A stretch of DNA of 64,000 nucleotides, from IMG/VR virus record IMGVR_UViG_3300029305_006397. One strand, written 5' to 3'. A program made the position numbers and the translations under genes. This DNA comes from a virus. The notes beneath the pieces are model-generated. The model had not been told where the DNA came from. It did not search any database and was given only the letters and a program-made list of their open reading frames with translations. Within the stretch, counting starts at the first letter, position 1, and every line of letters begins with the position of its first letter. Below are positions 2,870-64,000 of this stretch, in pieces.

Positions 2870-3124
2870 ATATACCCTAATCTGTTATCGTACAGATTGG
2901 TAGAAACGCCGGATTTGCACCGGGACTCGCGAGTGTCTTTGGGCGCAGCCAGGGATCGAACCCGGAAATCAAGACTTGGCTTCCTGCATTTTGCCTCTTA
3001 AATTACTGAGCCATAAAACTCCCGGTGGGTTCTCAGGCCCACATTGCCCGTTTACCGAAGCAGTGACGGCAGTCCTTCAGGTGATAAGCTTAAAGTCACC
3101 CTTGCGAATTTGTACGACAGGAGT

Positions 3125-3210
3125 TGGTGAATACAATTGGATTCGAACCAATGCTCGACGACTGAGCCAAAGGCATGGGCCGTCCGTGCTAACCGCTACA
3201 CCATATATTC
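3125..3210 (-). tRNA. noncanonical tRNA-like gene (86 nt) with 16-18 nt anticodon loop (contains CAT)
   Basis: Acceptor GAATATA/TGTATTC, D-arm GTGT-AGCGGTTA-GCAC, T-arm ATTGG-TTCGAAT-CCAAT, encoded ACCA. The stem GACGG/TCGTC encloses CCCATGCCTTTGGCTCAG instead of a 7-nt loop. Confidence 0.45.
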
Positions 3211-3358
3211 ATGCATCCGACTAAGCAGTAGTCGGCACTGTGAAACACGCCGCGTGACACCTCGTCTGCGTCTGCGTCTGCGATTTCAATCAGTGATATC
3301 GCCACTGATCCTCCCCTTGTCATCGGGAAAACTATCTTGACCAAGCGATATTTGGGAC

Positions 3359-3435
3359 TGGTGGGGGCCACAGGACTCGAACCTGTGACCGATCGGTTAT
3401 GAGCCGACTGCTCTGACCAACTGCGCTAGACCCCC
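3359..3435 (-). tRNA. tRNA-Met (anticodon CAT; could be Ile2 or initiator)
   Basis: Acceptor GGGGGTC/GGCCCCC, loop CTCATAA, T-loop GGTTCGAGTCC, encoded CCA. Confidence 0.85.
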
Positions 3436-3814
3436 ATATGTAATGCCCCTGGTTGTATTAAATACATATGCATATGGATAGCTACGTCCCGCGAAGGAGT
3501 ATTCGCGTGTATGCCTGACTTAAATCACGGACTCCAATTGTATTACTATGTGACGCATACTTTCGTTTTTATCCGCTATCTGGACGGGGCAGGTTAAGCG
3601 ATAACCTATGCCTTTCGACAACCCAGCCTCTAATAAGAGGCTGACGCTCATGGCCTAATGTCCTGTTTCAACTCGCCATGACGAGCAATCACCTGCAAGA
3701 ATCGAACCTGCCTGGAAGTCAAGCTTCCTTTACTGCCGCCCAGAAGTGATTAAGATGGATTGTTTGACTTTAATTTGATAAGCGGAGGCCAAACAACCAA
3801 ATTTCTCTCACGAT

Positions 3815-3900
<86 letters not shown>

Positions 3901-3978
3901 AGATTGGTGGGCCTTAACGTCGGCCCAAACGACAGATGGGTTTATGCGCTGCGTAACCTCTTTTGCTCTTAACCGCGA

Positions 3979-4061
3979 TGGTGGGGATGGTGGGACTTGA
4001 ACCCACACGGTCTAGCCGTCGCATTTTGAGTGCGATGCGTCTGCCATTCCGCCACAACCCC
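3979..4061 (-). tRNA. tRNA-Leu (anticodon CAA)
   Basis: Class II tRNA: GGCGGAATGGCAGACGC D-arm, loop CTCAAAA, long variable arm, T-loop GGTTCAAGTCC, encoded CCA. One acceptor mismatch. Confidence 0.85.
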
Positions 4062-4174
4062 GCCTAGTATGGCATGCCGTTCGGCTTACGACGGCCATAA
4101 CGCCGGATTTAGGAAATCACCCAAGAAAGGAGGTGTACATATGAAACCGTATCTCACCCGGAATCAGATGTAAG

Positions 4175-4250
4175 TGGTGAAAGTGGCGGGATTCGAACCC
4201 GCGACTCACAGATTAAAAGTCTGTTACTCTACCGACTGAGTTACACTTCC
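4175..4250 (-). tRNA. tRNA-Lys (anticodon TTT)
   Basis: Acceptor GGAAGTG/CACTTTC, loop CTTTTAA, T-loop GGTTCGAATCC, encoded CCA. First gene of the leftward array. Confidence 0.9.
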
Positions 4251-4258
4251 AAGTAATT

Positions 4259-4276
4259 TTTGCACATAATGTTTAT
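4259..4276 (-). promoter_or_regulatory. conserved 18-nt motif copy A (sense ATAAACATTATGTGCAAA)
   Basis: Ends 8 nt upstream of the tRNA-Lys 5' end. One of 8 near-identical copies in the window. Confidence 0.5.
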
Positions 4277-4317
4277 TGTTTATCAGATCAATCCGAATTA
4301 TCGTTTTCATCTTTATT

Positions 4318-4335
4318 TTTGCATATAATGTTTAT
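4318..4335 (-). promoter_or_regulatory. conserved 18-nt motif copy B (ATAAACATTATATGCAAA)
   Basis: Second copy in the spacer between rtcB and the tRNA array. Confidence 0.5.
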
Positions 4336-4427
4336 AAGCAATAAAAGAATGATTTACTGCCTTTTCAAATGATCGCCATTTGAATGCCTTCGGATTGATT
4401 GATAATAGACAGTGATTCATTTTATCG

Positions 4428-4445
4428 TTTGCACTTAATGTTTAT
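4428..4445 (-). promoter_or_regulatory. conserved 18-nt motif copy C (ATAAACATTAAGTGCAAA)
   Basis: Third copy in the spacer between rtcB and the tRNA array. Confidence 0.5.
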
Positions 4446-4537
4446 TAAAACATCTTAAATCGCCAACGACTGTAATAATACTACCACAAGATTCATAGCT
4501 TGTCAACCCCTTTTTCAAACTTTTTTGAAAAAAATTT

Positions 4538-5713
4538 TCAAGCTTCTGCTTTAAAATTATAGATGGGTTTAAAACGATCTACGATATCTACGGTTGGGCC
4601 AATGCAATTAATAATTTCCTGATAATCCTTGTAAACAAAAGGAGCTTCATCCAAGGTTGATTCATTAATGCATGTGGAATATATGCCATTCATAGTTTCG
4701 GCATATTCTTCTACGGTAAATATCTTCTTTGCCTGTGCGCGAGAATACAGGCGACCAGCTCCATGAGGAGCAGAACAATTCCATTCGGTATTGCCCTTTC
4801 CTCTGCAGATCAAAAGACCATCACGCATATTAAGAGGAATTACAAGAAACTGACCTTGCTGCGCAGAGATTGCGCCTTTGCGCAAAATCATTTCTTTCAC
4901 ATTGATATAATTATGTACACTATCAATGCAATAATCGATTTCACCACCCATAGCAGATACGATTGTATGCAACATTATCCATCTATTCTGTTCAGCAAAT
5001 TCCTGTAGAATTGCAACGTCATGAAGATAATCATCCATGTCCTGTCCGGTAAGATAACAAAGATCGGGATCAATTGCGATATGATGTTCAGACAGCCATT
5101 GCTGGCGCATAACAGGTTCAATAAACTGCAGTTGCTCCATGCGCAAATTATAGTTGTATTTCTTTATGCGATTTACGGCGAGGTTCTGGTAGTATTGAGC
5201 CACTTTCAGGCCGATATTGCGACTGCCTGAATGAACAGCGATATATCCATTTTCATACGCTTCGATGAAATGGTTCCCACCTCCAAGAGTTCCAAGGGTA
5301 CACTTTGCCCTTTCCTGGGTCGCTTTATCCAATTTGTCCCAGCACCGCAATTCTTCGAAATCTCGTTCCCATACCTTCTCAGTCGAATGTACATCCATAC
5401 CAAACGGAATACTAGATCGGATAGCGGCGTCCAATTCATCAAGGCGAGAATCAAAATCAATATTGGTTTGTACAAGTGATACACCACAACCGATATCTAC
5501 GCCAACCAAATTCGGGCATACCTTATCCGTGATATGCATAGTAGTACCGATTACACAGCCAGCTCCGGCATGGGCATCCGGCATGATTCGAATATGTGCG
5601 TCCTTACCCAAAGGAGAATCCGCCATCTTTTTAATTTGATCGATAGCTTGATCCTCAATTGTCTTAGCATAAATGACGACATCATCACCATGGGTAGACT
5701 TATATATTTTCAC
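4538..5713 (-). CDS. rtcB: RtcB-family RNA 3'-phosphate/2',3'-cyclic phosphate to 5'-OH ligase
   Basis: 391 aa with RtcB hallmarks: MPDAHAGAGCVIG, GGGNHFIE, HSGSRNIG, SAPHGAGR. GTG start follows AAGGTGA. Confidence 0.9.
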   Translation of the reverse strand: MKIYKSTHGDDVVIYAKTIEDQAIDQIKKMADSPLGKDAHIRIMPDAHAGAGCVIGTTMHITDKVCPNLVGVDIGCGVSLVQTNIDFDSRLDELDAAIRSSIPFGMDVHSTEKVWERDFEELRCWDKLDKATQERAKCTLGTLGGGNHFIEAYENGYIAVHSGSRNIGLKVAQYYQNLAVNRIKKYNYNLRMEQLQFIEPVMRQQWLSEHHIAIDPDLCYLTGQDMDDYLHDVAILQEFAEQNRWIMLHTIVSAMGGEIDYCIDSVHNYINVKEMILRKGAISAQQGQFLVIPLNMRDGLLICRGKGNTEWNCSAPHGAGRLYSRAQAKKIFTVEEYAETMNGIYSTCINESTLDEAPFVYKDYQEIINCIGPTVDIVDRFKPIYNFKAEA

Positions 5714-6954: not shown

Positions 6955-7395
6955 TTATTCAACAACCAGTTCAAGTTTTGTAAAAGTGGAAAGTTCATCG
7001 ACAAGATAGATTTCAAAGCAATCGCAGCCATCCTGAGTGCCAACGTATTTAAAAGCAATATGTGCAATATCCAATGCTTCTTCTACCATATAATCGTAAC
7101 CATCCTGATCGAGAATCCAGAGGGCATCGGTACATTCAGAAAGGCGCAGATTGTAACCGTAGTCAAAACCCAGCAAGTCAAAGCTGCCTCTATTCTTTTC
7201 GTAATCAAGGACTCGAAGTGTTTTGATGGTACGAGATTCTTTAATTTCTGAGCGAATGCGGCGCAACACAAAAATGGGATCATCAAAAGATTGGGAAACC
7301 TCGTTAATCCATGAATGATCCTGGGTAAATAAAGAACAAGGATTATCGATGATTTGAAGATGAAAAGGATTGGCGACGATGATTTCAGTATTCAT
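6955..7395 (-). CDS. hypothetical protein (146 aa)
   Basis: Track ORF. AAGGAGAG SD upstream of the ATG. Confidence 0.6.
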   Translation of the reverse strand: MNTEIIVANPFHLQIIDNPCSLFTQDHSWINEVSQSFDDPIFVLRRIRSEIKESRTIKTLRVLDYEKNRGSFDLLGFDYGYNLRLSECTDALWILDQDGYDYMVEEALDIAHIAFKYVGTQDGCDCFEIYLVDELSTFTKLELVVE

Positions 7396-8800: not shown

Positions 8801-9247
8801 TCAATAAGGGCCTCGATAAATCTTGCCAGTGAAGTTGCCGTTTTTATCCTGCTCCCATATACAATCATACATACCGATTAAACGATTTCTGTATACCTGG
8901 CTGGGTTCGTTACCTTCGTAAATCTTGTCGTCCTTATATCTGATTTTATCGTATTCATATCGGTTCCAGTCGATGATTTTTGCCACAGGCAGAGGATGTT
9001 GTTTAATGATTTTGCGATACTTACCATCGCTATACCATTCATTGATCTGGCGTTTCTCGAAATGCTCAATATCCCACTTCCAGCTTTCGATATCGACAAC
9101 GCCCTGGGGGATGGGATCTTCAGGAAGATAATAGAGCGTTTTCCTGATCTCGGCGGCACGGGCATTGGTTTCTCTGGTTTTCTTATTCTGCGCAGCGGCA
9201 GCTGCGCCCCAAAGGAAAAGACCTGCGAGAAGTTTAATCATCAACAT
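8801..9247 (-). CDS. hypothetical secreted/membrane-anchored protein (148 aa)
   Basis: AAAGGAG SD before the ATG at 9245-9247. N-terminal signal-like MLMIKLLAGLFLWGAAAAA. Confidence 0.6.
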   Translation of the reverse strand: MLMIKLLAGLFLWGAAAAAQNKKTRETNARAAEIRKTLYYLPEDPIPQGVVDIESWKWDIEHFEKRQINEWYSDGKYRKIIKQHPLPVAKIIDWNRYEYDKIRYKDDKIYEGNEPSQVYRNRLIGMYDCIWEQDKNGNFTGKIYRGPY

Positions 9248-10764: not shown

Positions 10765-10784
10765 GCTCAATTCTCCCATTTATT

Positions 10785-10802
10785 TTTGCACATTATGTTT
10801 GT
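10785..10802 (-). promoter_or_regulatory. conserved 18-nt motif copy D (ACAAACATAATGTGCAAA)
   Basis: Lies about 20 nt upstream of the ART-like gene start. Confidence 0.5.
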
Positions 10803-10877
10803 ATAAAATGCATAATCAGGTTTGCAAGCCCCTGATCTGATATTATTTTACCATATTTTGTACAGAAAATCAATCCC

Positions 10878-10895
10878 TTAAACATGATATGCAAA
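10878..10895 (+). promoter_or_regulatory. conserved 18-nt motif copy D' (TTAAACATGATATGCAAA), opposite orientation
   Basis: 15/18 match to the consensus (three mismatches: T1, G9, A12). Faces copy D across the 10780-10914 spacer. Confidence 0.4.
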
Positions 10896-10914
10896 AATTA
10901 ATTTTCATATGCCA

Positions 10915-29287: not shown

Positions 29288-29383
29288 AAGTGTTTCCTCC
29301 TATCTTTCCTTATGCGTTTGGCTTTAGGGGCTTGTGACCTTATGCCTTGCCGCATTAACAGGGCTTATGCCCTGCCACTCTGC

Positions 29384-29569
29384 TTAATCTCGATTGGAAA
29401 GCTCCGTGTGATAGATATGCACACTCTGAAGGCGTCTGCTTCCAAATTTCCGTCGAAATTCCTCTTTCGCATCTTTCATGTTTGCCTTGCTACCGTTTCG
29501 ATGATCGCTTACATACTCAAATTCTCCGTAATCGTGACCATCATCATAAAGCGCAATGTAGTTTTTCAT
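29384..29569 (-). CDS. hypothetical protein (61 aa)
   Basis: Track ORF. AGGAGGC SD. Confidence 0.55.
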   Translation of the reverse strand: MKNYIALYDDGHDYGEFEYVSDHRNGSKANMKDAKEEFRRKFGSRRLQSVHIYHTELSNRD

Positions 29570-32038: not shown

Positions 32039-32107
32039 CCATACCCACGCCCCGGCAGGGCGTGACGCTCACGGCTTAAATGGCTTTTTATAGTCGCCGT
32101 GACGACT
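32039..32107 (-). ncRNA. pistol ribozyme (Pistol-f)
   Basis: AGUCG-UCACGG-CGACU hairpin. The loop is complementary to the downstream CCGUGA (pseudoknot). Then GCG, P3 UCACGCCC/GGGCGUGG, G/U, AUGG pairing with CCAU. Same spacing as the env25 pistol as I recall it. Cut is between 32044 and 32043. Confidence 0.75.
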
Positions 32108-32441: not shown

Positions 32442-32507
32442 TTGAACCCGCCCCAAACGGGGCGACGCTTTGGGCCTAATCAACTATTTAAAGTCGCCCA
32501 AACGACT
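32442..32507 (-). ncRNA. pistol ribozyme (Pistol-g)
   Basis: AGUCG-UUUGGG-CGACU-UUAAAUAGUUGAUUAGG-CCCAAA-GCG-UCGCCCC-GUUU-GGGGCGG-G/U-UCAA. The linker UUAAAUAGUUG is identical to the env25 pistol as I recall it. The pseudoknot and P2 covary with Pistol-f. Cut is between 32447 and 32446. Confidence 0.8.
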
Positions 32508-33176: not shown

Positions 33177-33203
33177 GTTTTACACCTTCCTATTCTTTTC
33201 TTG

Positions 33204-33221
33204 TTTGCAAGTAATGTTTAT
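33204..33221 (-). promoter_or_regulatory. conserved 18-nt motif copy E (ATAAACATTACTTGCAAA)
   Basis: Lies upstream of the first gene of the leftward operon. Confidence 0.5.
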
Positions 33222-33664
33222 TACTATGCATAAACCCGACTTTCGACGGGCTTTAGTCGCCTGTTATAATCTCGTTTGAATGTCAAGCCCTAAGCAGCTT
33301 GCAGGGACTTTCGGCGTATGCGGTACTTGTTTGCATTCTGCCGGATTTGTGATTCTTTCTCGATTCTAACAAGCGTCTAAAGCCTATTGAGTAGACTTTA
33401 GTTAGAAAAGATAGAAAAGATAAAGGTTTGAGGGCTTTTAATGAGGCTGTAAAAACAGCGTCAAGACTTAGGATTATACGCGCCCTTATTAGGGGATTTT
33501 TCGACGGCCTGCACCTTTGCGGTATAGGTTTTTAATTAACCATTGCAGCCCCGGACTTGCGACCATTCGCCCTGCGACCTTTGCCGCTTTTTTCGCCTTT
33601 TTGAGACGGGGTTCAATCGTGCGCGTAGTATCCTTTGCGCCCTTGAATTTATTCAATTTTCAAG

Positions 33665-33693
33665 TTGCCTTTTGCGTACAAACGTGGTATAAT
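33665..33693 (+). promoter_or_regulatory. sigma70-like promoter with extended -10 (TTGCCT-17-TGgTATAAT)
   Basis: Read directly. The -10 is embedded in the palindrome CGTGGTATAATAACCACG. A GC-rich untranslated tract follows. Confidence 0.45.
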
Positions 33694-33786
33694 AACCACG
33701 TTCGGCACGGCCTCGGCTTCCCTCTCAACCTTGCAGGGCTTGCGTCCTCTCGGGGTTCGTGGTTCGGCCTCGGGCTTGTGTCGTTC

Positions 33787-33814
33787 GGGTTCCGGTTCCG
33801 GGGTTCCGGTTCCG
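33787..33814. repeat. perfect tandem duplication of 14-mer GGGTTCCGGTTCCG
   Basis: Two exact copies: 33787-33800 and 33801-33814. Confidence 0.8.
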
Positions 33815-33844
33815 TTGCCGTCCTGACGTGTATTATGTTACACC

Positions 33845-33858
33845 ATATTGCGCAATAC
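33845..33858. promoter_or_regulatory. palindromic operator-like site ATATTGCGCAATAC
   Basis: Repeated at 33903-33916, upstream of the RHH-like gene. Confidence 0.45.
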
Positions 33859-33902
33859 GTCAACCCGTATTTTTAACCAAAAATATCAATTCGTATTTGT
33901 GT

Positions 33903-33916
33903 ATATTGCACAATAC
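33903..33916. promoter_or_regulatory. palindromic operator-like site ATATTGCACAATAC
   Basis: Second copy, 15 nt before the ATG at 33931. Confidence 0.45.
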
Positions 33917-33930
33917 ATTATAGGATTATT

Positions 33931-34149
33931 ATGTACGATAAAGATAAAGCGATAAAAAGACAAAACGATTTTAATAAATCGAATTATGATAGATTAAACA
34001 CGACTATACCGAAGGGACGCAAGGCCGATATAGTTGCATATTGCGATAGTATTGGAACCACGCCAAACGGCTTAATTAATGAATTGTTGCGGTTTGAATT
34101 GGGGTTTACACCTGAACAATGGAAGGAACGGGCGACGGCTGAAGAATAG
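33931..34149 (+). CDS. small RHH/Arc-like DNA-binding protein (72 aa)
   Basis: Track ORF. Paralog of 13282..13488 (NYDRLNTTIPKGRKADIVAYC...NGLINELL..ELG..PEQW). Confidence 0.55.
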   Translation: MYDKDKAIKRQNDFNKSNYDRLNTTIPKGRKADIVAYCDSIGTTPNGLINELLRFELGFTPEQWKERATAEE

Positions 34150-34254
34150 TAATACTGTATTTTTTGTTTAATGTTGCTATACTTTATAGCTAACCGTTTA
34201 CGGTTAATTATATGCGGTTAATTAACCGTGTTTGAAAATTGGGGCGAATTTTAG

Positions 34255-34278
34255 CGACGGCGCAAACCGTCGTTTTTT
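34255..34278 (+). terminator. intrinsic terminator
   Basis: CGACGG-CGCAAA-CCGTCG followed by TTTTTT. Confidence 0.55.
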
Positions 34279-34933
34279 GTTGTGCGCTGTTGGGCGTTTG
34301 GGGCTGTTTGCAAGGCCAGGGCGACTGTTACCGGGGGCGGCGGTTGCCGTGGGTTTGCTTGATTTTTGCGGCGGCGATAGCCCCCGGATTTATTCGACCA
34401 AAAAAGCGAAAAAATTAGCTAATATCGCATTTTAGGCGACAGCCCCGGCCCCTAGGGGTATTTTACACTTTTTTAACATTTTCGCGCGATCCGCCGTCTG
34501 GTGTCTGGTATATCTATGACATATTGATTTTTGAACCGCATTCCGATCCTAAAAATGCTGCAAGATCGCAATTCAAAATCCACTTTGATTTAATCGACGG
34601 TATACTTCAACGGTAGCAGCTTTTACTATTTTCAAAAAGCTATTGAAACTCAGTGTCTTTTTAGGTCAATTTAAATCACCCTCAAGCCTGGACTTTCATG
34701 ATTTCTACCTATAATACCTCTCCTCTTTTACCTGTCGCAAAATAAATAAGACGAATCAAAGTCAATCTGATTCATTGTAAAAACTATTGAGTTTCAGCAC
34801 TTATTTCAATAAATACAACCAGTCTTTTCGAATACAAATACTAAAATTTTCGACGGTAAACCGTTGTTCACTTTTCGTGTTATTTTGAAAAGCTCTGAAA
34901 TCTAATAGTTTTAAAGAATATTGTCATTTGATC

Positions 34934-34962
34934 TTGACAACTAACCTTATCTGTGTTAAAAT
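34934..34962 (+). promoter_or_regulatory. sigma70-type promoter TTGACA-17 nt-TAAAAT
   Basis: Consensus -35, 17-nt spacer, near-consensus -10. Points toward the rightward block. Confidence 0.55.
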
Positions 34963-34988
34963 CATTATAGTTATGTTGTCCATTGTTT

Positions 34989-35026
34989 TTTGCACTTAAT
35001 TTTTATCAATAAACATTATGTGCAAA
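34989..35026. promoter_or_regulatory. inverted pair of the 18-nt motif (TTTGCACTTAATTTTTAT / ATAAACATTATGTGCAAA)
   Basis: Two copies in opposite orientation separated by 2 nt form a 38-bp near-palindrome about 30 nt downstream of the -10. Confidence 0.55.
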
Positions 35027-35246
35027 TTATATTGCGTTGCTTATGTTTATGCGCAGCAACTAACATCTCCATGGAGCGCGGAAGCGCGACCGTAACCCCG
35101 GAGGGCGTAAGCCCGTAGGTCGTAGCCCCCCTTCCCCAGAGGGAAGGTATGAAGCGCAGCGTAAGCAAGCGACCCCTGCTGCGCCCCACGCGCGGCAGTA
35201 TACTATAATCTTTCTAAGTTAATCTATATAAGTATTGAAGTGAAAA

Positions 35247-35268
35247 TTTCCACGCAAATCTGTGGAAA
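35247..35268. promoter_or_regulatory. inverted repeat TTTCCAC-N8-GTGGAAA (operator/iteron-like, DnaA-box-like half sites)
   Basis: Read directly. Repeated at 35290-35310. Confidence 0.45.
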
Positions 35269-35289
35269 AAAACGCACCCTCTATAAATA

Positions 35290-35310
35290 TTTCCACAAAA
35301 TCGCGTGGAT
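35290..35310. promoter_or_regulatory. inverted repeat TTTCCAC-N8-GTGGA(T)
   Basis: Second copy, 36 nt before the TTG start of 35346. Confidence 0.45.
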
Positions 35311-35345
35311 TTTTTATCAGAGGCTGAAAGGAGGGAAACATGTGA

Positions 35346-40030: not shown

Positions 40031-40108
40031 ATGGAAGTAGTTTAAGGCAAAACAGCTGAAGGTACAAAACAAAAACGGAAGTTGAGGGTGCAAATCCCTC
40101 CTTCCATC
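40031..40108 (+). pseudogene. tRNA-like element lacking a recognizable anticodon arm
   Basis: Acceptor ATGGAAG/CTTCCAT. The D-arm GTTT-AAGGCA-AAAC is nearly identical to that of tRNA-Trp at 1510-1585. T-like arm GAGGG-TGCAAAT-CCCTC. The middle 29 nt do not pair. Confidence 0.35.
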
Positions 40109-40113
40109 CGTAT

Positions 40114-40191
40114 TGCGGAGTGGAGAAGCGGACTATCTCGCCAGCCTCATAAGCTGGAGATCGCTGGTTCGAATCCAGCCTCTCGCAACCA
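40114..40191 (+). tRNA. tRNA-Met-like (anticodon CAT) with one bulged nucleotide in the acceptor 3' strand
   Basis: D-arm GAGA/TCTC, arm CCAGC-CTCATAA-GCTGG, T-arm GCTGG-TTCGAAT-CCAGC. Acceptor TGCGGAG pairs with CTC(T)CGCA. Encoded ACCA. Confidence 0.6.
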
Positions 40192-40194
40192 CAT

Positions 40195-40269
40195 GTGGAG
40201 TTCGTATAATGGTTAGTACCTGAGATTTTCAATCTCAAAACAGGGGTTCAACTCCCCTACTCCTCACCA
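40195..40269 (+). tRNA. tRNA-Glu (anticodon TTC)
   Basis: Arm TGAGA-TTTTCAA-TCTCA, T-arm AGGGG-TTCAACT-CCCCT, encoded CCA. One acceptor mismatch. Confidence 0.8.
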
Positions 40270-40438
40270 GTTAGTTTTTTGCTGTAATGATCTTCGGACT
40301 TATGGCTTAAATCGCATGCTTCGGATTCCTTCGGGGCCGAGGCTTTATTTTGAAAAATTGTTCGCTAGTCAGTATGCGACTAATAAAATACTGATCAGAA
40401 ACTACCATCTGATTTCTTTTAAATCAGGTGGTTTATAT

Positions 40439-40515
40439 CAGGGTGTATATCAGTTTGGTAGATGGCCGCATTTGGGATGCGGAGGCCGCTGGTTCGAATC
40501 CAGTCACCTTGACCA
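40439..40515 (+). tRNA. tRNA-Pro (anticodon TGG)
   Basis: C1-G72 acceptor CAGGGTG/CACCTTG, arm CCGCA-TTTGGGA-TGCGG, T-loop GGTTCGAATCC, encoded CCA. Confidence 0.85.
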
Positions 40516-40557
40516 TGATCGTACTCAAGAATGCTACGGCGCTTGGGTCTATTTATA

Positions 40558-40584
40558 GGGTGGCGATGCCACCCTTTTATTTTT
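40558..40584 (+). terminator. intrinsic terminator inside the tRNA array
   Basis: GGGTGGC-GAT-GCCACCC followed by TTTTATTTTT. Confidence 0.6.
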
Positions 40585-40588
40585 ACAT

Positions 40589-40678
40589 GCTGATATGGCC
40601 GAGTCTGGCTTAAGGCGGTGGTCTTGAAAACCATTGGAGGTAACACTCACGGAGGTTCGAATCCTTCTATCAGCGCCA
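40589..40678 (+). tRNA. tRNA-Ser (anticodon TGA)
   Basis: Class II: acceptor GCTGATA/TATCAGC, loop CTTGAAA, long variable arm, encoded CCA. Confidence 0.85.
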
Positions 40679-40831
40679 GTATTAGCTCTCCTGCATAAAA
40701 ATGTGCTATTGATGACAGAAACAGGAGATAAGAGTCCCGCAAGTAGACACGCGGTTCAGTGCTCGTACAGGTGTTTTGTTGAGCAAGCAGTCTATTAAGA
40801 ATAAACACTGACAGCAGGAAAGACTGCATAT

Positions 40832-40923
40832 GGAGAGGTGGCTGAGTGGCTGAAAGCGGCACCCTGCTAAGATGTTTGCCCTGGTGACAGGGCACGAGAG
40901 TTCGAATCTCTCCCTCTTCGCCA
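40832..40923 (+). tRNA. tRNA-Ser (anticodon GCT)
   Basis: Class II: GGAGAGG acceptor, loop CTGCTAA, variable arm GCCCTGGTGACAGGGC, encoded CCA. Confidence 0.8.
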
Positions 40924-41094
40924 AACAAATGTGGTTCCGGTAGAGCCTGACGCATCAGTACCGACCTTGATGGAAAGGGTATCCCGTAGCTAAGACGAGT
41001 CCATAGGCGGGGATTTCTGCCACGTTGATTTAGCTCATCTGCCAAGTGCAGAAGGAGTTCCTGGATGTGTTACACAACTAGCGCATCCTGATTT

Positions 41095-41169
41095 GGTTCT
41101 ATAGTTTAGGGGCTAGAATGCCAGCCTGTCACGCTGGAGACACGGGTTCGATTCCCGTTAGAGCCGCCA
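41095..41169 (+). tRNA. tRNA-Asp (anticodon GTC)
   Basis: Arm CCAGC-CTGTCAC-GCTGG, T-loop GGTTCGATTCC, encoded CCA. Confidence 0.85.
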
Positions 41170-41228
41170 ATTTGCCTCACACGCCTCTTTGTCGTATGAC
41201 AAATGCGGACTAAGTGAGGTTTTTTCAT

Positions 41229-41304
41229 GGGGTTATAGCTCAGTTGGAAGAGCGCGTGCTTTGCAAGCATGAGGTCAAGGGTTCGAGACCCTTTAGCTCC
41301 ACCA
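41229..41304 (+). tRNA. tRNA-Ala (anticodon TGC)
   Basis: G3:U70 pair present, loop TTTGCAA, encoded CCA. Confidence 0.85.
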
Positions 41305-41306
41305 AT

Positions 41307-41378
41307 CGCCGGGTGGTGTAAATGTTAGCACCGCAGACTATGATTCTGCGAATAAAGGTTTAAATCCTTTTCCGGCGA
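41307..41378 (+). tRNA. tRNA with anticodon ATG (nominally His), no encoded CCA
   Basis: Acceptor CGCCGGG/TCCGGCG, D GTGT/GCAC, arm GCAGA-CTATGAT-TCTGC, T-arm AAAGG-TTTAAAT-CCTTT. A34 and the lack of a G-1 feature are atypical for His. Confidence 0.6.
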
Positions 41379-41711
41379 TTATGTTATCTATTTCCCAACA
41401 TACTGTCATGCGTGGGTGGAATAAGAAGAGACGGGCGTTTTCGGTCGGCATAAACCGAAGTTTGGCATTTGAGGTCAAATGAGTTTGATGAATGCAATCC
41501 CGTGCTGCTATGCGGTATTTGCAGGAGAACAACAGGGGTTTGCGTATAACCACAAGGCAGCTAGGTACAATCCGAAAGAAAAACGGTTATAAAGGGCGTC
41601 CCGCCACCTATATCCCAAGTGTGGAACGATAAAGCAGGTGTTTCGCTGCCTATAAATGCGAAATTTAATCAGCTCCGTGTTGGATATTTTGACATGCGGA
41701 GCATTTTATAT

Positions 41712-41787
41712 GGCATCATAGCTCAGTCGGTAGAGCAGCTGGCTGTTAACCAGCAGGTCAAGAGTTCGAGCCTCTTCGGTGCCTCCA
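41712..41787 (+). tRNA. tRNA-Asn (anticodon GTT)
   Basis: Arm GCTGG-CTGTTAA-CCAGC, T-loop AGTTCGAGCCT, encoded CCA. Confidence 0.85.
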
Positions 41788-41908
41788 CGGGTAGATAAGA
41801 TAACAAAACGCGCCACTACCCCAAGGCAGATACATACGCATTCGAGAAGCGCAATGGCTGCGATCAAATTGGCAGATGTGTAGGCGGCAGACTTAACTGT
41901 CTTTATTT

Positions 41909-41985
41909 GCTGTCATAGCTACAATTGGCAGAGCGACGGATTTGTAATCCGTAGGTTCAGAGTTCGAGTCTCTGTGGCAGCTCCA
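41909..41985 (+). tRNA. tRNA-Thr (anticodon TGT), second copy
   Basis: Acceptor GCTGTCA/TGGCAGC, arm ACGGA-TTTGTAA-TCCGT, encoded CCA. Confidence 0.85.
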
Positions 41986-57758: not shown

Positions 57759-57840
57759 GAAATTACCGCACCTTTTTGCGGGTGCGTTTACTGGCCGTTT
57801 TACGGCTTTGATGCACTTTACGAAAAGGATGTGATTACAT

Positions 57841-60800
57841 ATGGCGGATGAAAGATTTAGAGCGTTACTTAGTGCAGAGTTAGAATCTGGTGCGCTTGAT
57901 AATATAAAGAAACAACTTAATGGATTGAGCGAAGAGCCAATTCGAATTGGGATTGAGCTTGATCTTAGAGAGACACAAAGGCAATTAAATGCTATTACTG
58001 ACACTTTTCGGGATTTAAACCGGACAATGAGAGGTTTACGTTTCGAAAATCTATTTCATAATTTCAATTCTTCTTCTGCGAGTTTAAGAAGAATCGCGGA
58101 AACATTTGGAAATTTAGAAGATAACATTGTAGGTATTCGCAATGCGTTAGGTACTATTGATAACGATGCCGGAATTGCATCAATTACACAAACGATAAAC
58201 GAGATGAACCGCGCAACTGCAAACGCTGTTGATCAAATGCGAGAGCTAATTGAAGTCACTCGTAATCAAAATTTTAGTTTTAATCTCAATATGGGTGCTG
58301 GCAATACGACGGCGGCTTATGGTAGAGCTGCAAGACAAAGCATTGCAGAGTTGCGTCAGCAGGCATCAGCTATTGAAGAAGCGTTCCGTGTTGCTACAAA
58401 TGCAACACAAGGATATGAGGCCGTTTTCAGGGCTGCTGCCGGAACCAATCAAATGGGCAGACTTTTTGAGATTGCGCCTAATATTGGCGATACAACTCAA
58501 AGTTTGCGACAACAGATGGACGTATACAGAGAGTATATACAGATTCAGCAAGAAATTGCTAGGATTAGAGGTATTGATCTTTCAGGAGTTACCGCTGGAT
58601 TTGTACGATCTGCAAATGAAATTATTGATGCTGCTGAACGAGTTCAAGATGGTACTGCCCAAACAGAACAAAACATTGAGCGGTTAAGAGGCATTTTAGG
58701 TGGCGGTATTGGAGCCGAAGAATTGGCTGCGCAGATCGACCGTGTATGCAGCAGTCTCGAAGAGATCAGAACTTCGTTAAGTGGACTCGGAGAAAATATT
58801 CGACTTGACGGGCTGACCGCCTCTTTTGACAGATTATCTGCTACGATTGAAAATCTATTGCATAATGCAACGATTATTAGAACCGTGTTGGGAAATGGCC
58901 TTGGAGCCGCTGGATCGCAGATTAATGACGTTGTTCAAAGCACGGGACGGCTTTACGATATCAATTTAGATACGATGTCTTCTGAAATTGGCAATGTAAC
59001 GGAAGCCATGAGGCGATTGGGGTTCTGTGACGAATCAATTCGATCTGTAACGGATAGTCTTTCAAATATGGAAATTGCCATTCGAAAGATTACCATTGCC
59101 ACAAGAAATACTGGAGGTATTAACCTTTCCATTGAAGGAAAGAACCAATATGGAGATACAGTTACCAATCGAAGATCGGTATATGAAGTGCAGGAAGAAG
59201 GAACCATGTTCCCGACGCTTATCAACGAGGATCGTGGCACAAGGTTGGTTCGCACATTCAAAGAAATTGATGCGGCTTATTCCGAATTGAAAAAATCAAT
59301 TCAGGAAATGAGCAGCCTGGAAGGCAAGCTTGTTGGCCTTGACGCTAGAGAAAATATGGCCGAAATTGTTGCTGTTAATAATCGACTTCGTGAGTTACAG
59401 CAACGGATCGTTGACCTATACGACACGCACGGCAACGATTTTTCTGCTGAACAAATTCGGAATTTAGATATGGTGGCGGCTTCTGCCGCAGAAAGCCTTA
59501 CACAACTGAGGGCAAGAACCCAAGATGCGGCAAATCATGACGCCGTAAATCAATCGTTTAGGGAACTTGGAGATACAATCCGGCGAATTGGTAGCCTGGA
59601 AGGCAAGCTGCTTTCTCTTGATCCAAATAAGGATCAGGCGCAAATTGAAGAATTGCGCAGAGAATTGGATGCTTTATACCTTTCATACAATCGGATATTT
59701 GCAGAAAACCGACATCGTTTTTCTACGAATCAGATAGACCAGCTCGAAAACGAATTTCAATCTGCAGCTGAAAAAGTAGCTATTCTTGACGCGAAGCTGC
59801 AAGATGTTTCTGCAGCGAAGTTGAAAGCGCAGATTGACGAGATTAACAGAGGATTGGATACTTCCAAATACGAGAAGGAAGTTAAATCGGTAGAAGCTGC
59901 TTTTAAAAAGCTTGGAGTTCAGAGCGACGCGGCGAAAGAGGCAATTAGGCAGCTTAAAGAATCATTTGAAACATTAAAAGAATCCAAAGGCAATGAAGAA
60001 GCCATGCTTGCTGCGGCAACAGCTTATGCGACGGCTTTGGAGAAGGCCAAGAATATTGTAGATATTGACAAACTTAATCCTAGACAACAATTGACCAGTG
60101 AAATTAAAACATGGCTTACTCAGAATGGCAATGCAGCAGCTGACGCCAGAGCAGAAGTTGAAAAATTGCTCCAGACTATTGAAGCTTGCAGTGAGACGGA
60201 TATCGATAAACACGCAGCTGAATGGGGGCGATTAAAAAAAGCAATTGATAGTTCGCAGGATTCAGCTCTGAATTTACAAAATGTAATTACAAAACTTGCA
60301 TCGCAGTATTTATCCTTTACTGATATTTGTAATTACATAAAGATGGCCTTCAAGGCAATGTATGAAAACGTCCTTGAAATTGATACGGCAATGACCAATC
60401 TGTACAAGGTTACAGATGAAACGGCAGATAGGTACGACAAGTTCCTAACAACCGCTGCCAAGAAATCCAAAGACCTTGGAAGAAATATGGCAAGCTATAT
60501 CGAGCAGACAGCTGACTGGACAAAGCTCGGTTATTCATTGGACGAAGCAGAGCAGTTATCCGAACTTTCCAGCGTTTATTCAAACGTAGGTGAAGTAGAC
60601 GATTCTACAGCTGTAAGTGATATAGTTACGGCTATGAAGGCTTTTAATATTGAAGCCAAAGATGCTGTGAAAATTATCGATAGTTTGAATGAGCTTGGAA
60701 ACAGGTTCGCTACAAACGCTGCCGATCTGGGAACAGGTTTGACAAAATCTGCTTCTGCTATGAACGCAGCTGGAGTAGATATGCAGCATACGTTAGCAAT

Positions 60801-63800
60801 GCTGACTGGTATTACCGAGATTACTCAGAACTCTTCTGAGGCGGGTAACGCGCTTAAAGTGTTTAGCATGCGCATCCGTGGCATGAAGGGAGAGTTGGAA
60901 GAACTTGGTGAAGAAGTAGGCGAAAACGTAGATTCCATCAGCAAGGTGCAGACTCAGATTCTGAATCTGACCAAAGGCAAAGTTAACATATTTGACGATG
61001 CCGGACAATTCAGAGATTATTATGAGATTATGCAAGATATTGCTAATGAATGGGACAAACTGAATAGTATTGATAGGTCTAATCTCTCTGAAATTCTGTT
61101 TGGTAAAATGCGTGGAAACCAAGGTCAGGCGTTGATCCAGGCATTCCAATCCGGTCAAATTACAAAAGCCCTTGAAACCGCACAGAAATCCGCTGGTTCT
61201 GCGATGGCAGAGCAGGAAAAATGGATGGAGAGCCTGGAAGCAAAGCTTGGCTCTCTGGATGCAGTTATTCAGAAGATTTCTGAAAATGTCTTAGATTCAG
61301 ATTTGCTTAAAGGTGGCATCGATCTGCTTACCGGGATTTTGTCTGTAGTTGAGCAGATTACGGATAGTCTTGGTTCGTTTGGTACTTTGTTAGTTGGATT
61401 ACCGATTGGTATTTTTGCAGGTGGCGCTGTTAATGAATTGGTTAGACTCGCAACTGCCGCAGCAAATACGGCCGAAGGCTTTAATTTACTGGGTAGTATT
61501 GGGCCTGCATTGAATGTAGGATTCAAGTCTGTAACCAAAGCTGTTGGTGGATTAAAAGGAGCGTTTGCCGCATTAGGAAAAGTAATTGCAGCAAATCCGA
61601 TTTTAGCAATTGCAACTGGCGTGTTAACTGTAATTTCTATTATAGAAGCTGTTCATACTTCAGCAAGCGAAGCCGCCGAAAAGTTTAACGATGCTGTTGC
61701 GGAATATGATACCGCAAAGCAAAAGGTTGCCGATGTAAATACAGAACTGAATACATGCATTTCCAGGATGGAAGAGCTTGAACGGAAAAAGGGATTAACT
61801 TTTGTTGAGCAGCAAGAGTTAGAAGATTTAAGAGAAGCAACGGCACTTTTGGAAACTCAGGCCCTTTTGGCAGAAAAAGAAGTGCAAAGAAAGGCTAAGG
61901 AAGTTGCCACATCTGCTTATGAATCTTATGATAAGAATTTTGGAAGCTTCAATGATGAAGCACTTGAGTATTATACAAAAATGTATGATACAAGTATGAG
62001 TGGTAGGCACAAGGAATGGCAAAAGTATGACGCTAAAAATTTAGCCAGCATGTTCGGAGCTTATACTGAGGCGGTAAAAGCTAAAAATGAGCTTGAAGCA
62101 ACAATGGCTCGGTATGCGAACGGAGAATCTATTTCTGCTGCAGAATTTGCATCGATTCAAGGATATGAAACTTTTATTTCTGAATATGATCAATTGGTCG
62201 CAGATATTGAAGCTTCTATTACCACTTTAAATGGATATCAACTTAATTTAGCATCGTTGCCAGAAGAAACTTTTTCTGAATTTCCTTGGCTTAAAGCGTT
62301 TAAAAACGAGGTAGATTCAGCAGTAGACTACTACTTGCAAGTTTTTGAACCAGGTGTTTGGAAGCAACAACAGTATGATGCATTATTTGATACTGAACCA
62401 TACGCAGCAGCCAAAAAAGCATTGCTCGAAATAGCTTCTGCGAATAAAACTGTTGGTGTGACACTTGATGATGTGAAAACTCAATTTGGTGATTCATACG
62501 GCACATTCCTTGAAGATTTATGGGCAGCTGGCTTTGAGCTTGAAGATTTTATTAATAATATCAATTCTGAGGCAGGAATTATTGATTTAAATACTGCAAG
62601 CAAACAAACTCTTAAAGATTTTTACGAAGCAAATGATATTGATCCTGAAGGTGAAAACGAGGTCGGAATAAATGTAGAAGTAGGCGTCAATGAAAGGCCG
62701 AATCAATCCGGCTTAACTGTACTTCAATTGATGGATTATATTGATAGTCTGAACGAAGAAGATAAGGTTTTATTCTATTCTCTTGAAATTGATTGGAGTA
62801 CCGCGACTATCGAAGACATTGAATCAATGATGGCATCTGCCAAACTTGGAACAGAAGGTGGCAAGATATCATTTGCAGATTTAATGGGAGACAAAGAATA
62901 TTTGGCCTTTATTGAAGAACAGACCAAAAAAGCTACGGCTTTAAAAGAAGCTTTGGCATTGATCGATGAAGGTAAAATAGAAAAAATTGATTATCAAGGT
63001 TTGCAAGAATTATTCAAGACTCCAGTAACTACCGAAACGTCAAGAGACTGGTATTCAAATCAATTAATAGCATTAGAAACAGAAACAAATGAAGCTATTG
63101 ATCAATATGTAGCATTGGGAGAAGATGCTGTTGCTCAAACTCAAATTGCTTCGCAGAAGAATGTATTAAAACCTGCATTTACATATGACCCAGAAGCAGT
63201 TGATCCAAGCAAGATTACTGACTATATTGATGCCGCAGAAAATCTTTATTCATATTTAGAAGATGGAATTGAAAGAAAAGATTTAATGGGATTGGCTTAT
63301 GATATGCCGGAACTTGGTATCAACTGGACTGTGGCTCAAGATGAACTTGACGCCGAAGCCACAAAAGCAATAAAAAATATTCGAAGATCAATTGTTGATT
63401 TTTATAGTGAGCAATATGATGCAGCTACAAGTGCAGCTGAAAGAGCAAGAATTATTAATGAACAAAGAGCTGTTCTCTCAATATTTGATCTGCTTGGAAT
63501 TAAAGATGCCGAAAGCTTCGATTTTGAAGATACTTCTCAAATTAGATCGATTATAAGTGGATTGCAGGATGATCTTAGAGACGTAATTTCCGGAGAAATG
63601 AGTGAAGCAGAGAAAGCCAGTATGGTAACTGATCTGCTAGAAAACCATTCTGAGGTGCTGCTTGAAGCCGGAATTACAAATCTCAACACCAGTAATCTGG
63701 AAGAAAGTTTAAATACTCTGATTACCACTTACAAGGATCGGATTGTATCTATTCTAACGACTGCGCGAGATGCACTTAACCCGACTGATAATGCAAATGA

Positions 63801-64000
63801 AATTGCTTTGCTTAATCAAGCTATTGATGCATACACAAAAGATATTTGGGCGAATACGCCTGTTGCAGAACATAAGCTCGATACAAGCGCGATAACTGGA
63901 TATATTTCTGATATTGAAAGTATGTATGGTGCTCTTGAGGATGGGATTGATAGATTAGAGCTTTATCAGTTGTCTTTGAAATACCCTGAATTGTACATTG
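57841..64000 (+). CDS. tail tape-measure protein (partial, over 2050 aa, runs off the window)
   Basis: The frame stays open from the ATG at 57841 to the window end; checked in frame at 60361 and 63961. Core segment NLYKVTDETADRYDKF...LGRNMASYIEQTADWTKLGYSLDEAEQLSELSSVYSNVGEV...AMNAAGVDMQHTLAMLTGITEITQNSSEAGNALKV is typical of tape-measure proteins. Hydrophobic helices near 61380-61660. Coiled-coil rich. Confidence 0.85.
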   Translation, partial: MADERFRALLSAELESGALDNIKKQLNGLSEEPIRIGIELDLRETQRQLNAITDTFRDLNRTMRGLRFENLFHNFNSSSASLRRIAETFGNLEDNIVGIRNALGTIDNDAGIASITQTINEMNRATANAVDQMRELIEVTRNQNFSFNLNMGAGNTTAAYGRAARQSIAELRQQASAIEEAFRVATNATQGYEAVFRAAAGTNQMGRLFEIAPNIGDTTQSLRQQMDVYREYIQIQQEIARIRGIDLSGVTAGFVRSANEIIDAAERVQDGTAQTEQNIERLRGILGGGIGAEELAAQIDRVCSSLEEIRTSLSGLGENIRLDGLTASFDRLSATIENLLHNATIIRTVLGNGLGAAGSQINDVVQSTGRLYDINLDTMSSEIGNVTEAMRRLGFCDESIRSVTDSLSNMEIAIRKITIATRNTGGINLSIEGKNQYGDTVTNRRSVYEVQEEGTMFPTLINEDRGTRLVRTFKEIDAAYSELKKSIQEMSSLEGKLVGLDARENMAEIVAVNNRLRELQQRIVDLYDTHGNDFSAEQIRNLDMVAASAAESLTQLRARTQDAANHDAVNQSFRELGDTIRRIGSLEGKLLSLDPNKDQAQIEELRRELDALYLSYNRIFAENRHRFSTNQIDQLENEFQSAAEKVAILDAKLQDVSAAKLKAQIDEINRGLDTSKYEKEVKSVEAAFKKLGVQSDAAKEAIRQLKESFETLKESKGNEEAMLAAATAYATALEKAKNIVDIDKLNPRQQLTSEIKTWLTQNGNAAADARAEVEKLLQTIEACSETDIDKHAAEWGRLKKAIDSSQDSALNLQNVITKLASQYLSFTDICNYIKMAFKAMYENVLEIDTAMTNLYKVTDETADRYDKFLTTAAKKSKDLGRNMASYIEQTADWTKLGYSLDEAEQLSELSSVYSNVGEVDDSTAVSDIVTAMKAFNIEAKDAVKIIDSLNELGNRFATNAADLGTGLTKSASAMNAAGVDMQHTLAMLTGITEITQNSSEAGNALKVFSMRIRGMKGELEELGEEVGENVDSISKVQTQILNLTKGKVNIFDDAGQFRDYYEIMQDIANEWDKLNSIDRSNLSEILFGKMRGNQGQALIQAFQSGQITKALETAQKSAGSAMAEQEKWMESLEAKLGSLDAVIQKISENVLDSDLLKGGIDLLTGILSVVEQITDSLGSFGTLLVGLPIGIFAGGAVNELVRLATAAANTAEGFNLLGSIGPALNVGFKSVTKAVGGLKGAFAALGKVIAANPILAIATGVLTVISIIEAVHTSASEAAEKFNDAVAEYDTAKQKVADVNTELNTCISRMEELERKKGLTFVEQQELEDLREATALLETQALLAEKEVQRKAKEVATSAYESYDKNFGSFNDEALEYYTKMYDTSMSGRHKEWQKYDAKNLASMFGAYTEAVKAKNELEATMARYANGESISAAEFASIQGYETFISEYDQLVADIEASITTLNGYQLNLASLPEETFSEFPWLKAFKNEVDSAVDYYLQVFEPGVWKQQQYDALFDTEPYAAAKKALLEIASANKTVGVTLDDVKTQFGDSYGTFLEDLWAAGFELEDFINNINSEAGIIDLNTASKQTLKDFYEANDIDPEGENEVGINVEVGVNERPNQSGLTVLQLMDYIDSLNEEDKVLFYSLEIDWSTATIEDIESMMASAKLGTEGGKISFADLMGDKEYLAFIEEQTKKATALKEALALIDEGKIEKIDYQGLQELFKTPVTTETSRDWYSNQLIALETETNEAIDQYVALGEDAVAQTQIASQKNVLKPAFTYDPEAVDPSKITDYIDAAENLYSYLEDGIERKDLMGLAYDMPELGINWTVAQDELDAEATKAIKNIRRSIVDFYSEQYDAATSAAERARIINEQRAVLSIFDLLGIKDAESFDFEDTSQIRSIISGLQDDLRDVISGEMSEAEKASMVTDLLENHSEVLLEAGITNLNTSNLEESLNTLITTYKDRIVSILTTARDALNPTDNANEIALLNQAIDAYTKDIWANTPVAEHKLDTSAITGYISDIESMYGALEDGIDRLELYQLSLKYPELYI

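Follow-up and report, generated by a model that had tools for sequence, protein, structure and literature searches.

A repeated asymmetric box in an uncultured SPβ-like phage as the probable operator of an MrpR-like repressor

What reads the short sequence that recurs at the heads of transcription units in the viral DNA of IMG/VR record IMGVR_UViG_3300029305_006397? The stretch analysed here (64,000 nucleotides, hereafter the window, to which all positions refer unless another locus is named) has a homologue of the RNA polymerase YonO, the corresponding gene content and no close phage relative in GenBank, and we therefore take it to be an uncultured SPβ-like phage. The original prediction described eight copies of an 18-nt motif and offered two roles for them, as promoters for an RNA polymerase-like phage protein or as operators of a phage regulator. 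We give a probability of roughly 0.7 to the reading that the motif is the core of an asymmetric operator box of about 23 bp, recognized by a 318-amino-acid (aa) master repressor that resembles MrpR, YopR and SroF.

The whole 64-kb window was searched on both strands with ATAAACATTATGTGCAAA, allowing up to three mismatches. Nine matches were found, against 0.26 expected from shuffles, and none of 100 shuffles reached this number. The eight copies of the original prediction were all recovered at their coordinates and on their strands, each with three mismatches at most, and a ninth match that it had not listed was added (464–481, two mismatches). A weight matrix trained on the eight copies scores them at 30.7–36.5 bits, the ninth site at 22.5 bits and the next best site in 64 kb at 13.5 bits. 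Since nothing besides the eight copies and the 464 site exceeds the latter value, the motif is a discrete class. The eight copies span 31 kb, from 4.2 to 35.0 kb, and are confined to four intergenic places (4251–4537, 10780–10914, 33177–33488, and 33864–35345, the last being a 1.4-kb non-coding stretch). Intergenic sequence makes up about 20% of the total by a crude gene map. The same map has the pair at 34989/35009 overlapping a 42-codon open reading frame (ORF), which we judged spurious. The placement of copies at the heads of transcription units is a correct description, as is the distance of 8 nt between the nearest copy and the tRNA-Lys gene (4175–4250). To the right of 35.1 kb, that is, in 35.1–64 kb, the weight-matrix scan found no copy scoring at least 13.5 bits. 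No copy falls within coding sequence, with the exception of the doubtful 464 site. This match includes the ATG start of a 147-codon ORF with an AGGAGG ribosome-binding site ahead of it; its 18-mer recurs at 3014–3031 of a related locus, L099, there as an intergenic copy.

The consensus that includes five copies from relatives is A-T-A-A-A-C-A-T-T-A-W-R-T-G-C-A-A-A. Beyond these 18 nt conservation continues into positions rich in A, with an A at position 23 that hardly varies. The box is asymmetric; its sole internal symmetry, ACAT-T-ATGT, is lost in most copies. Six of the eight copies are oriented like the downstream genes, and two are inverted. Three boxes (1–3) precede the tRNA-Lys gene. 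Box 4 stands before the 241-aa gene, the first of the operon that also encodes the integrase and the MrpR-like protein, and box 5, which is inverted, is directed into the 3' end of a converging gene. Box 6 has a conserved terminator-like hairpin on one side and, on the other, the ribosome-binding site of the DUF8033 gene, which heads a string of genes containing pistol ribozymes. Boxes 7 and 8 form an inverted pair, 2 bp apart, in the leader of the operon that comprises a winged-helix-turn-helix (wHTH) gene, a small ORF and the YonO gene; box 7 is unchanged in five further metagenome contigs of the same phage. Coordinates of the boxes, the adjacent promoters and the relevant genes are collected in Table 1.

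Three of the four box-bearing places have a near-consensus sigmaA-type promoter carrying the Firmicute TRTG element. Boxes 3, 2 and 1 lie at roughly +27, +137 and +196 from the first predicted start, before tRNA-Lys. At the second promoter one box is at about +36, and the other is directly upstream of the -35 element. The box pair occupies approximately +20 to +57 from the third promoter, inside the leader of the YonO operon. Because these conserved promoters stand alongside, the boxes are not needed as promoters. The motif itself lacks a -35/-10 pair, and the genuine promoter matches are beside it, not within it.

The earlier statement that the motif does not resemble a sigma70 promoter is essentially right, with the reservation that in half of the copies the 3' end, TRTGCAAAAAT, could pass for a weak extended -10. 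The sequence T(G/A)TGCAAAAAT, present in four of the eight, is similar to the Firmicute element TRTGnTATAAT, and copy 1 used in this way would start transcription at about the first base of tRNA-Lys; the motif might then define a family of phage early promoters for host sigmaA with the weak extended -10 TRTG-C-AAAAAT. We find this hard to credit. The TRTGCAAAAAT reading is given by those four copies only, and the T at -7 is missing in the other half (AAACGA, AAACAA, AAAAAA, AAATTA). The invariant bases, AAACAT...TGCAAA, are not those that a -10 element needs. There is no -35 element at the right distance, much better promoters are found beside the copies, and this reading would not account for the 5' half of the motif.

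Table 1. Motif copies, neighbouring promoters and genes of interest in the window
Feature	Sequence	Positions	Strand	Remarks
Box 1	ATAAACATTATGTGCAAA	4259-4276	-	0 mismatches; ends 8 nt before tRNA-Lys; conserved island in L099 alignment
Box 2	ATAAACATTATATGCAAA	4318-4335	-	1 mismatch; conserved island in L099 alignment
Box 3	ATAAACATTAAGTGCAAA	4428-4445	-	1 mismatch; ~+27 from predicted start of the 4506-4478 promoter; 18/18 in L099
Box 4	ACAAACATAATGTGCAAA	10785-10802	-	2 mismatches; 20 nt before ATG of 241-aa gene
Box 5	TTAAACATGATATGCAAA	10878-10895	+	3 mismatches; inverted; abuts -35 of the 10873-10845 promoter
Box 6	ATAAACATTACTTGCAAA	33204-33221	-	2 mismatches; 27 nt before ATG of DUF8033 gene
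Box 7	ATAAAAATTAAGTGCAAA	34989-35006	-	2 mismatches; left half of back-to-back pair
Box 8	ATAAACATTATGTGCAAA	35009-35026	+	0 mismatches; right half of pair
Candidate ninth copy	ATGAACATTAAGTGCAAA	464-481	-	2 mismatches; 22.5 bits; overlaps ORF start codon
SigmaA-type promoter	TTGACA-17-TAGTAT, TGTGG upstream	4478-4506	-	between rtcB and boxes 1-3
SigmaA-type promoter	TTGATT-17-TAAAAT, TATGG upstream	10845-10873	-	flanked by boxes 5 and 4; conserved in L098
SigmaA-type promoter	TTGACA-17-TAAAAT, TGTGT upstream	34934-34962	+	26 nt ahead of box pair; 11/12 matches plus TG
MrpR/YopR/SroF-like integrase-fold protein, 318 aa		7757-8713	-	proposed box-binding repressor
YopP-like tyrosine integrase, 309 aa		9258-10187	-	PF00589; phrog_216 and phrog_1, as SPβ YopP
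RHH-like protein, 72 aa		33931-34149	+	phrog_13890
Winged-helix (wHTH) protein, 283 aa		35346-36197		beside box-bearing region
YonO-type single-chain RNA polymerase, 971 aa		36427-39342	+	PF05183; phrog_8308, E 4e-231; downstream of boxes 7/8

The boxes persist in two relatives of the window phage whose repressors are orthologous. In L099 the repressor is 67% identical and the gene order from rtcB through tRNA-Lys is the same. In the alignment the -35 element, TGTGG, the three boxes and the tRNA appear as islands of identity in diverged spacers; the spacer of the promoter itself has also diverged. The spacing of the triple array is 109/57 nt in L099 and 110/59 nt in the window, and the motif-to-tRNA-Lys distance differs by 4 nt. 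In L098, with a repressor of 83% identity, the second promoter and the inverted box 5 are kept, the box at all 18 positions. The downstream box has decayed there, and the 241-aa and integrase genes are gone from that operon. The conservation of box 5, antisense and upstream of the -35 element, argues for a site that acts at the level of DNA over an RNA signal or a promoter. In positions 1–3100 of L098 the MrpR-like cluster adjoins a nitroreductase gene and five tRNA genes (Leu, Gly, Gly, Gly, Lys), which may represent a prophage/host junction or another genome arrangement.

The same observation bears on a possible function of the motif in RNA, as a processing, antitermination or stability signal of 5' leaders. 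At three places the copies are inside a predicted leader, from +20 to about +210, most of them in the sense orientation, and the inverted pair would give a hairpin in the leader RNA. However, copy 5 is antisense and outside the transcript, the rightward transcript reads copy 7 in antisense, no conserved secondary structure is formed by single copies, and no Rfam family matches the region. We regard an RNA element as the least probable of the explanations considered.

A different situation was observed in L107–L110. Compared with the divergent region of the window, the wHTH protein is 51% identical, YonO is 74% identical and the non-coding blocks are about 92% identical, and yet no copy of at least 12 bits was found in up to 13 kb of these loci, including the region upstream of the YonO operon. 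At the DUF8033 position of L107 the hairpin and the ribosome-binding site are conserved, with another sequence in place of the box. This replacing palindrome is not repeated elsewhere in the L107 contig. In the leader of the L107 YonO operon the box pair is simply absent. The terminator-like hairpin GCCCGTCGAAAGTCGGGTTT (33236–33262) is directly upstream of box 6 in the window and is conserved at 7131–7160 of L107. The phages SPβ and phi3T served as a control: they have YonO in common, and the element at the same site ahead of yonP is SPBRE in SPβ and Phi3TRE in phi3T. From this comparison, the identity of the box appears to follow the immunity module and not the polymerase.

None of the 80 IMG/VR loci retrieved with YonO as the query, in all of which YonO is at most 65% identical, yielded the motif. 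An exact-pattern scan of IMG/VR yielded 15 single matches that look like chance. A search of GTDB with the alignment of MrpR-like proteins detected only relatives of 29–35% identity, in metagenome-assembled genomes (MAGs) of Clostridia, and a k-mer search for repeated boxes in these loci gave nothing convincing, ordinary -10 regions only.

These data allow one to weigh the proposal that the motif is a promoter of the phage's own YonO-type polymerase, with transcription starting at or just after the TGCAAA end. YonO is a single-chain RNA polymerase that transcribes the late operon of SPβ from one mapped start, downstream of yonN and upstream of yonK (PMC5467207). The literature gives this single mapped start and no promoter consensus with which the motif could be compared (PMC5467207). 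Like promoters of the T7 class and the YonO start of SPβ, the motif is compact (about 18–23 nt), oriented and situated in front of genes; it is asymmetric and highly conserved, six of its eight copies follow the direction of the genes, and one ends just short of tRNA-Lys. Nevertheless, we hold this role to be very improbable, and the corresponding part of the original prediction is disfavoured. YonO of SPβ starts a single late operon (PMC5467207), whereas none of the copies precedes late genes: the empty right part of the window includes the stretch from YonO to the yonN-like gene and the terminase and portal genes, and the yonO gene is itself preceded by a copy. There are two inverted copies, and one faces a converging gene from upstream of a -35 element and is still perfectly conserved in L098. 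Three of the four places are already served by host-type promoters, the distance to tRNA-Lys shifts in L099, and, unlike a phage-polymerase promoter, the motif is not kept alongside the 74%-identical polymerase of L107.

A variant in which the box is, or doubles as, a promoter of YonO-type polymerases would have host and phage promoters in tandem ahead of the tRNA array and the early operons. Were this true, a first consensus for such polymerases would come from the window. In a milder variant the repressor would act as a roadblock 20–57 nt inside the leader, for which no precedent has been described in SPβ or phi3T. We consider these departures quite improbable.

The operator reading finds its closest parallels in the same two phages. 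SPBRE is a repeated element in about ten promoter regions of SPβ, including those of yonP and yopM, and is bound by the master repressor MrpR (YopR), a protein with the tyrosine-recombinase fold, as shown by chromatin affinity purification sequencing (ChAP-seq) and gel shifts (PMC10516654). In phi3T, one monomer of SroF wraps around an asymmetric box of 26 bp, of which it reads 24 bp, and the boxes are spread over distant parts of the genome (bioRxiv 10.1101/2025.11.27.690993). The SPBRE copies that we located on the SPβ record share the direction of the gene that follows. Those of yonT, aimR and yonX (copy 1) are immediately upstream of the -35 element, that of yonP is in the spacer, and those of yopV, yopM and yonX (copy 2) extend from about +1 to the ribosome-binding site.

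SPBRE and the window box are both long, asymmetric and AT-rich, are present in comparable numbers (about ten copies in SPβ and eight in the window), and occupy intergenic promoter regions that are far apart in the early/lysogeny arm, mostly in gene orientation. A promoter may have two boxes, as at yonX in SPβ and at 10785/10878 in the window. In both phages boxes head the yonP-yonO-type operon and the integrase/repressor operon, a likeness of position only, and both phages encode a protein of the MrpR family. Phi3TRE, with about 24 bp read by one monomer, explains how single non-palindromic copies can work. It is built on two A-tracts, in contrast to the CATTA(T/A)(G/A)TGC core of the window box. 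Sequence homology of the box to SPBRE or Phi3TRE was considered and rejected on shuffle tests. Since there is no significant sequence similarity, we view the link to these elements as one of position and function. SPBRE and Phi3TRE themselves differ in sequence, so that resemblance is not strictly defining, and boxes differ between phages that share YonO, in the window and L107 as in SPβ and phi3T.

The 318-aa protein, the proposed reader of the box, has phrog_5830 as its best PHROG (E 2.5e-4), in which YopR of SPβ is placed at E 4e-117. Its homologues with 34–39% identity carry PF22823 ('MrpR, C-terminal catalytic domain', MrpR_C_cat); the protein itself remains below the cut-offs for the MrpR domains in a local Pfam copy. 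Comparison of the family profile with YopR by hhalign gave a probability of 83% and an E-value of 8.7e-6 over 221 collinear columns. The AlphaFold model of the protein has a predicted local distance difference test (pLDDT) score of 87. When this model was compared with PDB by Foldseek, the seven best matches were SroF–DNA, YopR, MrpR and SroF–Sar structures, with Cre and other recombinases behind them; the first was phi3T SroF–DNA (PDB 9rd5, E 9.5e-10). No match was obtained in a PDB sequence search with the 318-aa protein, nor by BLASTP of this protein and the 309-aa integrase against YopR and YopP of SPβ. The kinship to the MrpR family thus appears remote but consistent. The operon behind box 4 has the order 241-aa gene, 309-aa integrase, 158-aa ORF and 318-aa gene. 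The pairing and order of a tyrosine integrase and an MrpR-like gene are shared with SPβ yopP...yopR and recur in a distant relative, L116.

Other phage proteins could be the readers, namely the 283-aa winged-helix protein, the 72-aa ribbon-helix-helix (RHH)-like protein or the 309-aa integrase. Their genes all adjoin box-bearing regions, no computation ties a particular protein to a particular DNA site, and the inverted pair with its 2-bp gap could suit a dimer. Winged-helix and RHH regulators are normally dimers on symmetric sites. The box, unlike such sites, is asymmetric, with six of the eight copies outside the inverted pair, and the RHH gene has upstream palindromes of its own. The integrase retains the usual catalytic-looking motifs (VRASDL and GHS...LKY), so its expected target would be an attachment site, not dispersed boxes; moreover, the inverted box in L098 is perfect though the integrase gene is gone from the operon. 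Reading of long asymmetric boxes by a monomer is documented only for MrpR/SroF (bioRxiv 10.1101/2025.11.27.690993). An operator for one of these three proteins is therefore unlikely in our estimation. As for the original prediction, its operator alternative is supported, with the 318-aa protein as the likely binder in place of the RHH-like, wHTH and RNA polymerase-like proteins that it had named.

We infer that the 318-aa protein binds the boxes as a monomer and represses transcription. In the lysogen, one repressor monomer would clamp around each box. With boxes lying between a host sigmaA-type promoter and the first gene, or flanking the promoter, the bound repressor would block transcription. 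Four units would be silenced in this way: the tRNA array, with three boxes; the repressor/integrase operon, with two, resulting in autoregulation; the DUF8033/ribozyme gene string, with one; and the wHTH-YonO operon, with the inverted pair. As YonO would be kept off, the late genes would be kept off as well.

Several observations weigh against the model of an MrpR-like repressor. A promoter for box 6 was sought and not found. The homology to MrpR is remote (14–16% identity, template-modelling (TM) score of about 0.5–0.57, and the 83% hhalign probability given above). The best ungapped matches of the box to SPBRE and Phi3TRE are 13/21 and 12/16 bases, equalled by 28% and 56% of shuffles, respectively. 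Boxes of SPβ abut the -35 element, fill the spacer or cover +1, whereas those of the window are at about +20 to +57 at three places. Repression from there would need a roadblock or a block of promoter clearance, a mode new for the MrpR/SroF family. The co-variation of box and repressor is half demonstrated, as the L107 contig does not include the repressor gene. Finally, no clear repeated box was found in the 15 kb around the 35%-identical MrpR-like gene of L116, where the k-mer search again met only ordinary -10 regions.

Some conserved non-coding segments were noticed near the boxes. The region 33370–33850 is a GC-rich block of about 480 nt, approximately 92% identical to positions 7190–7650 of L107 and far better conserved than the neighbouring wHTH (51%) and YonO (74%) proteins. 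No Rfam family matches it at E<=1, and a sigmaA-like sequence, TTGCCT-17-TATAAT, occurs in it at 33665–33693 (+). This block could be an RNA of a new kind or a replication element. In the region 33840–34149, two near-palindromes, TATTGCGCAATA and TATTGCACAATA, precede the RHH-like gene and are probably its own operators, forming a separate small regulatory unit in the divergent region. Right after the box pair, positions 35040–35200 contain tandem GC-rich hairpin units of about 29 nt, CGTAACCCC...GTAGG, which are conserved at 8826–8960 of L107 and match no Rfam family. The predicted leader RNA of the wHTH-YonO operon folds far better than shuffles (z = -5.55).

Genes of the window point leftward as far as about 34 kb, and those beyond about 35.3 kb point rightward. 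The 971-aa polymerase matches the Pfam RdRP family and shares 43.6% identity with the YonO protein of Bacillus phage SPβ; the window further encodes RtcB, two tRNA arrays, terminase and portal. Megablast of 12 kb of the window against GenBank phages gave no match. Distant relatives of its proteins were found in phages and MAGs of Clostridia, and the phage probably infects a member of the gut Clostridia and not Bacillus, the host of SPβ.

Above the Rfam gathering score, three pistol ribozymes, one twister-P5 ribozyme, one RAGATH-36 RNA and one drum RNA were identified (839–1000, 3617–3686, 29325–29384, 32039–32107, 32442–32507 and 41483–41590), situated between phage genes and within tRNA arrays. 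ARAGORN reports a 'tRNA-???' with an irregular anticodon loop and the anticodon 'ca' at 3125–3210, where the Rfam tRNA score is 46.9 bits. The second tRNA array (40031–41985) is located where SPβ has the 1.7-kb non-coding yonN-yonK spacer (L081, positions 3153–4835); this spacer contains the YonO-dependent start, and no counterpart of the window motif was seen in it. Stop-codon recoding at 58–64 kb was suspected from the lack of listed ORFs, but no sign of it was seen: the region 57834–64000 is a single ORF of more than 2,055 codons that continues past the right end of the window.

A switch of this type is already known in the Bacillus phages SPβ and phi3T; here it would probably be met in a lineage and a probable host group from which it has not been described. 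If our reading is correct, the combination of an integrase turned repressor with scattered asymmetric boxes would extend beyond the arbitrium phages of Bacillus, and uncultured SPβ-like phages from anaerobic Firmicutes of the gut would use the same switch with a new box sequence. It would provide a concrete protein-DNA pair, the 318-aa protein with ATAAACATTAWRTGCAAA. The arrangement suggests a geometry unlike that of SPβ, in which boxes are placed within predicted leaders, three of them stand in a row ahead of a tRNA gene, and two form a tight inverted pair. For annotation, the reading would caution against taking such repeats for promoters of phage polymerases. The units expected to be silent in the lysogen are the tRNA array, the YonO operon, the string of genes with ribozymes and the repressor operon.

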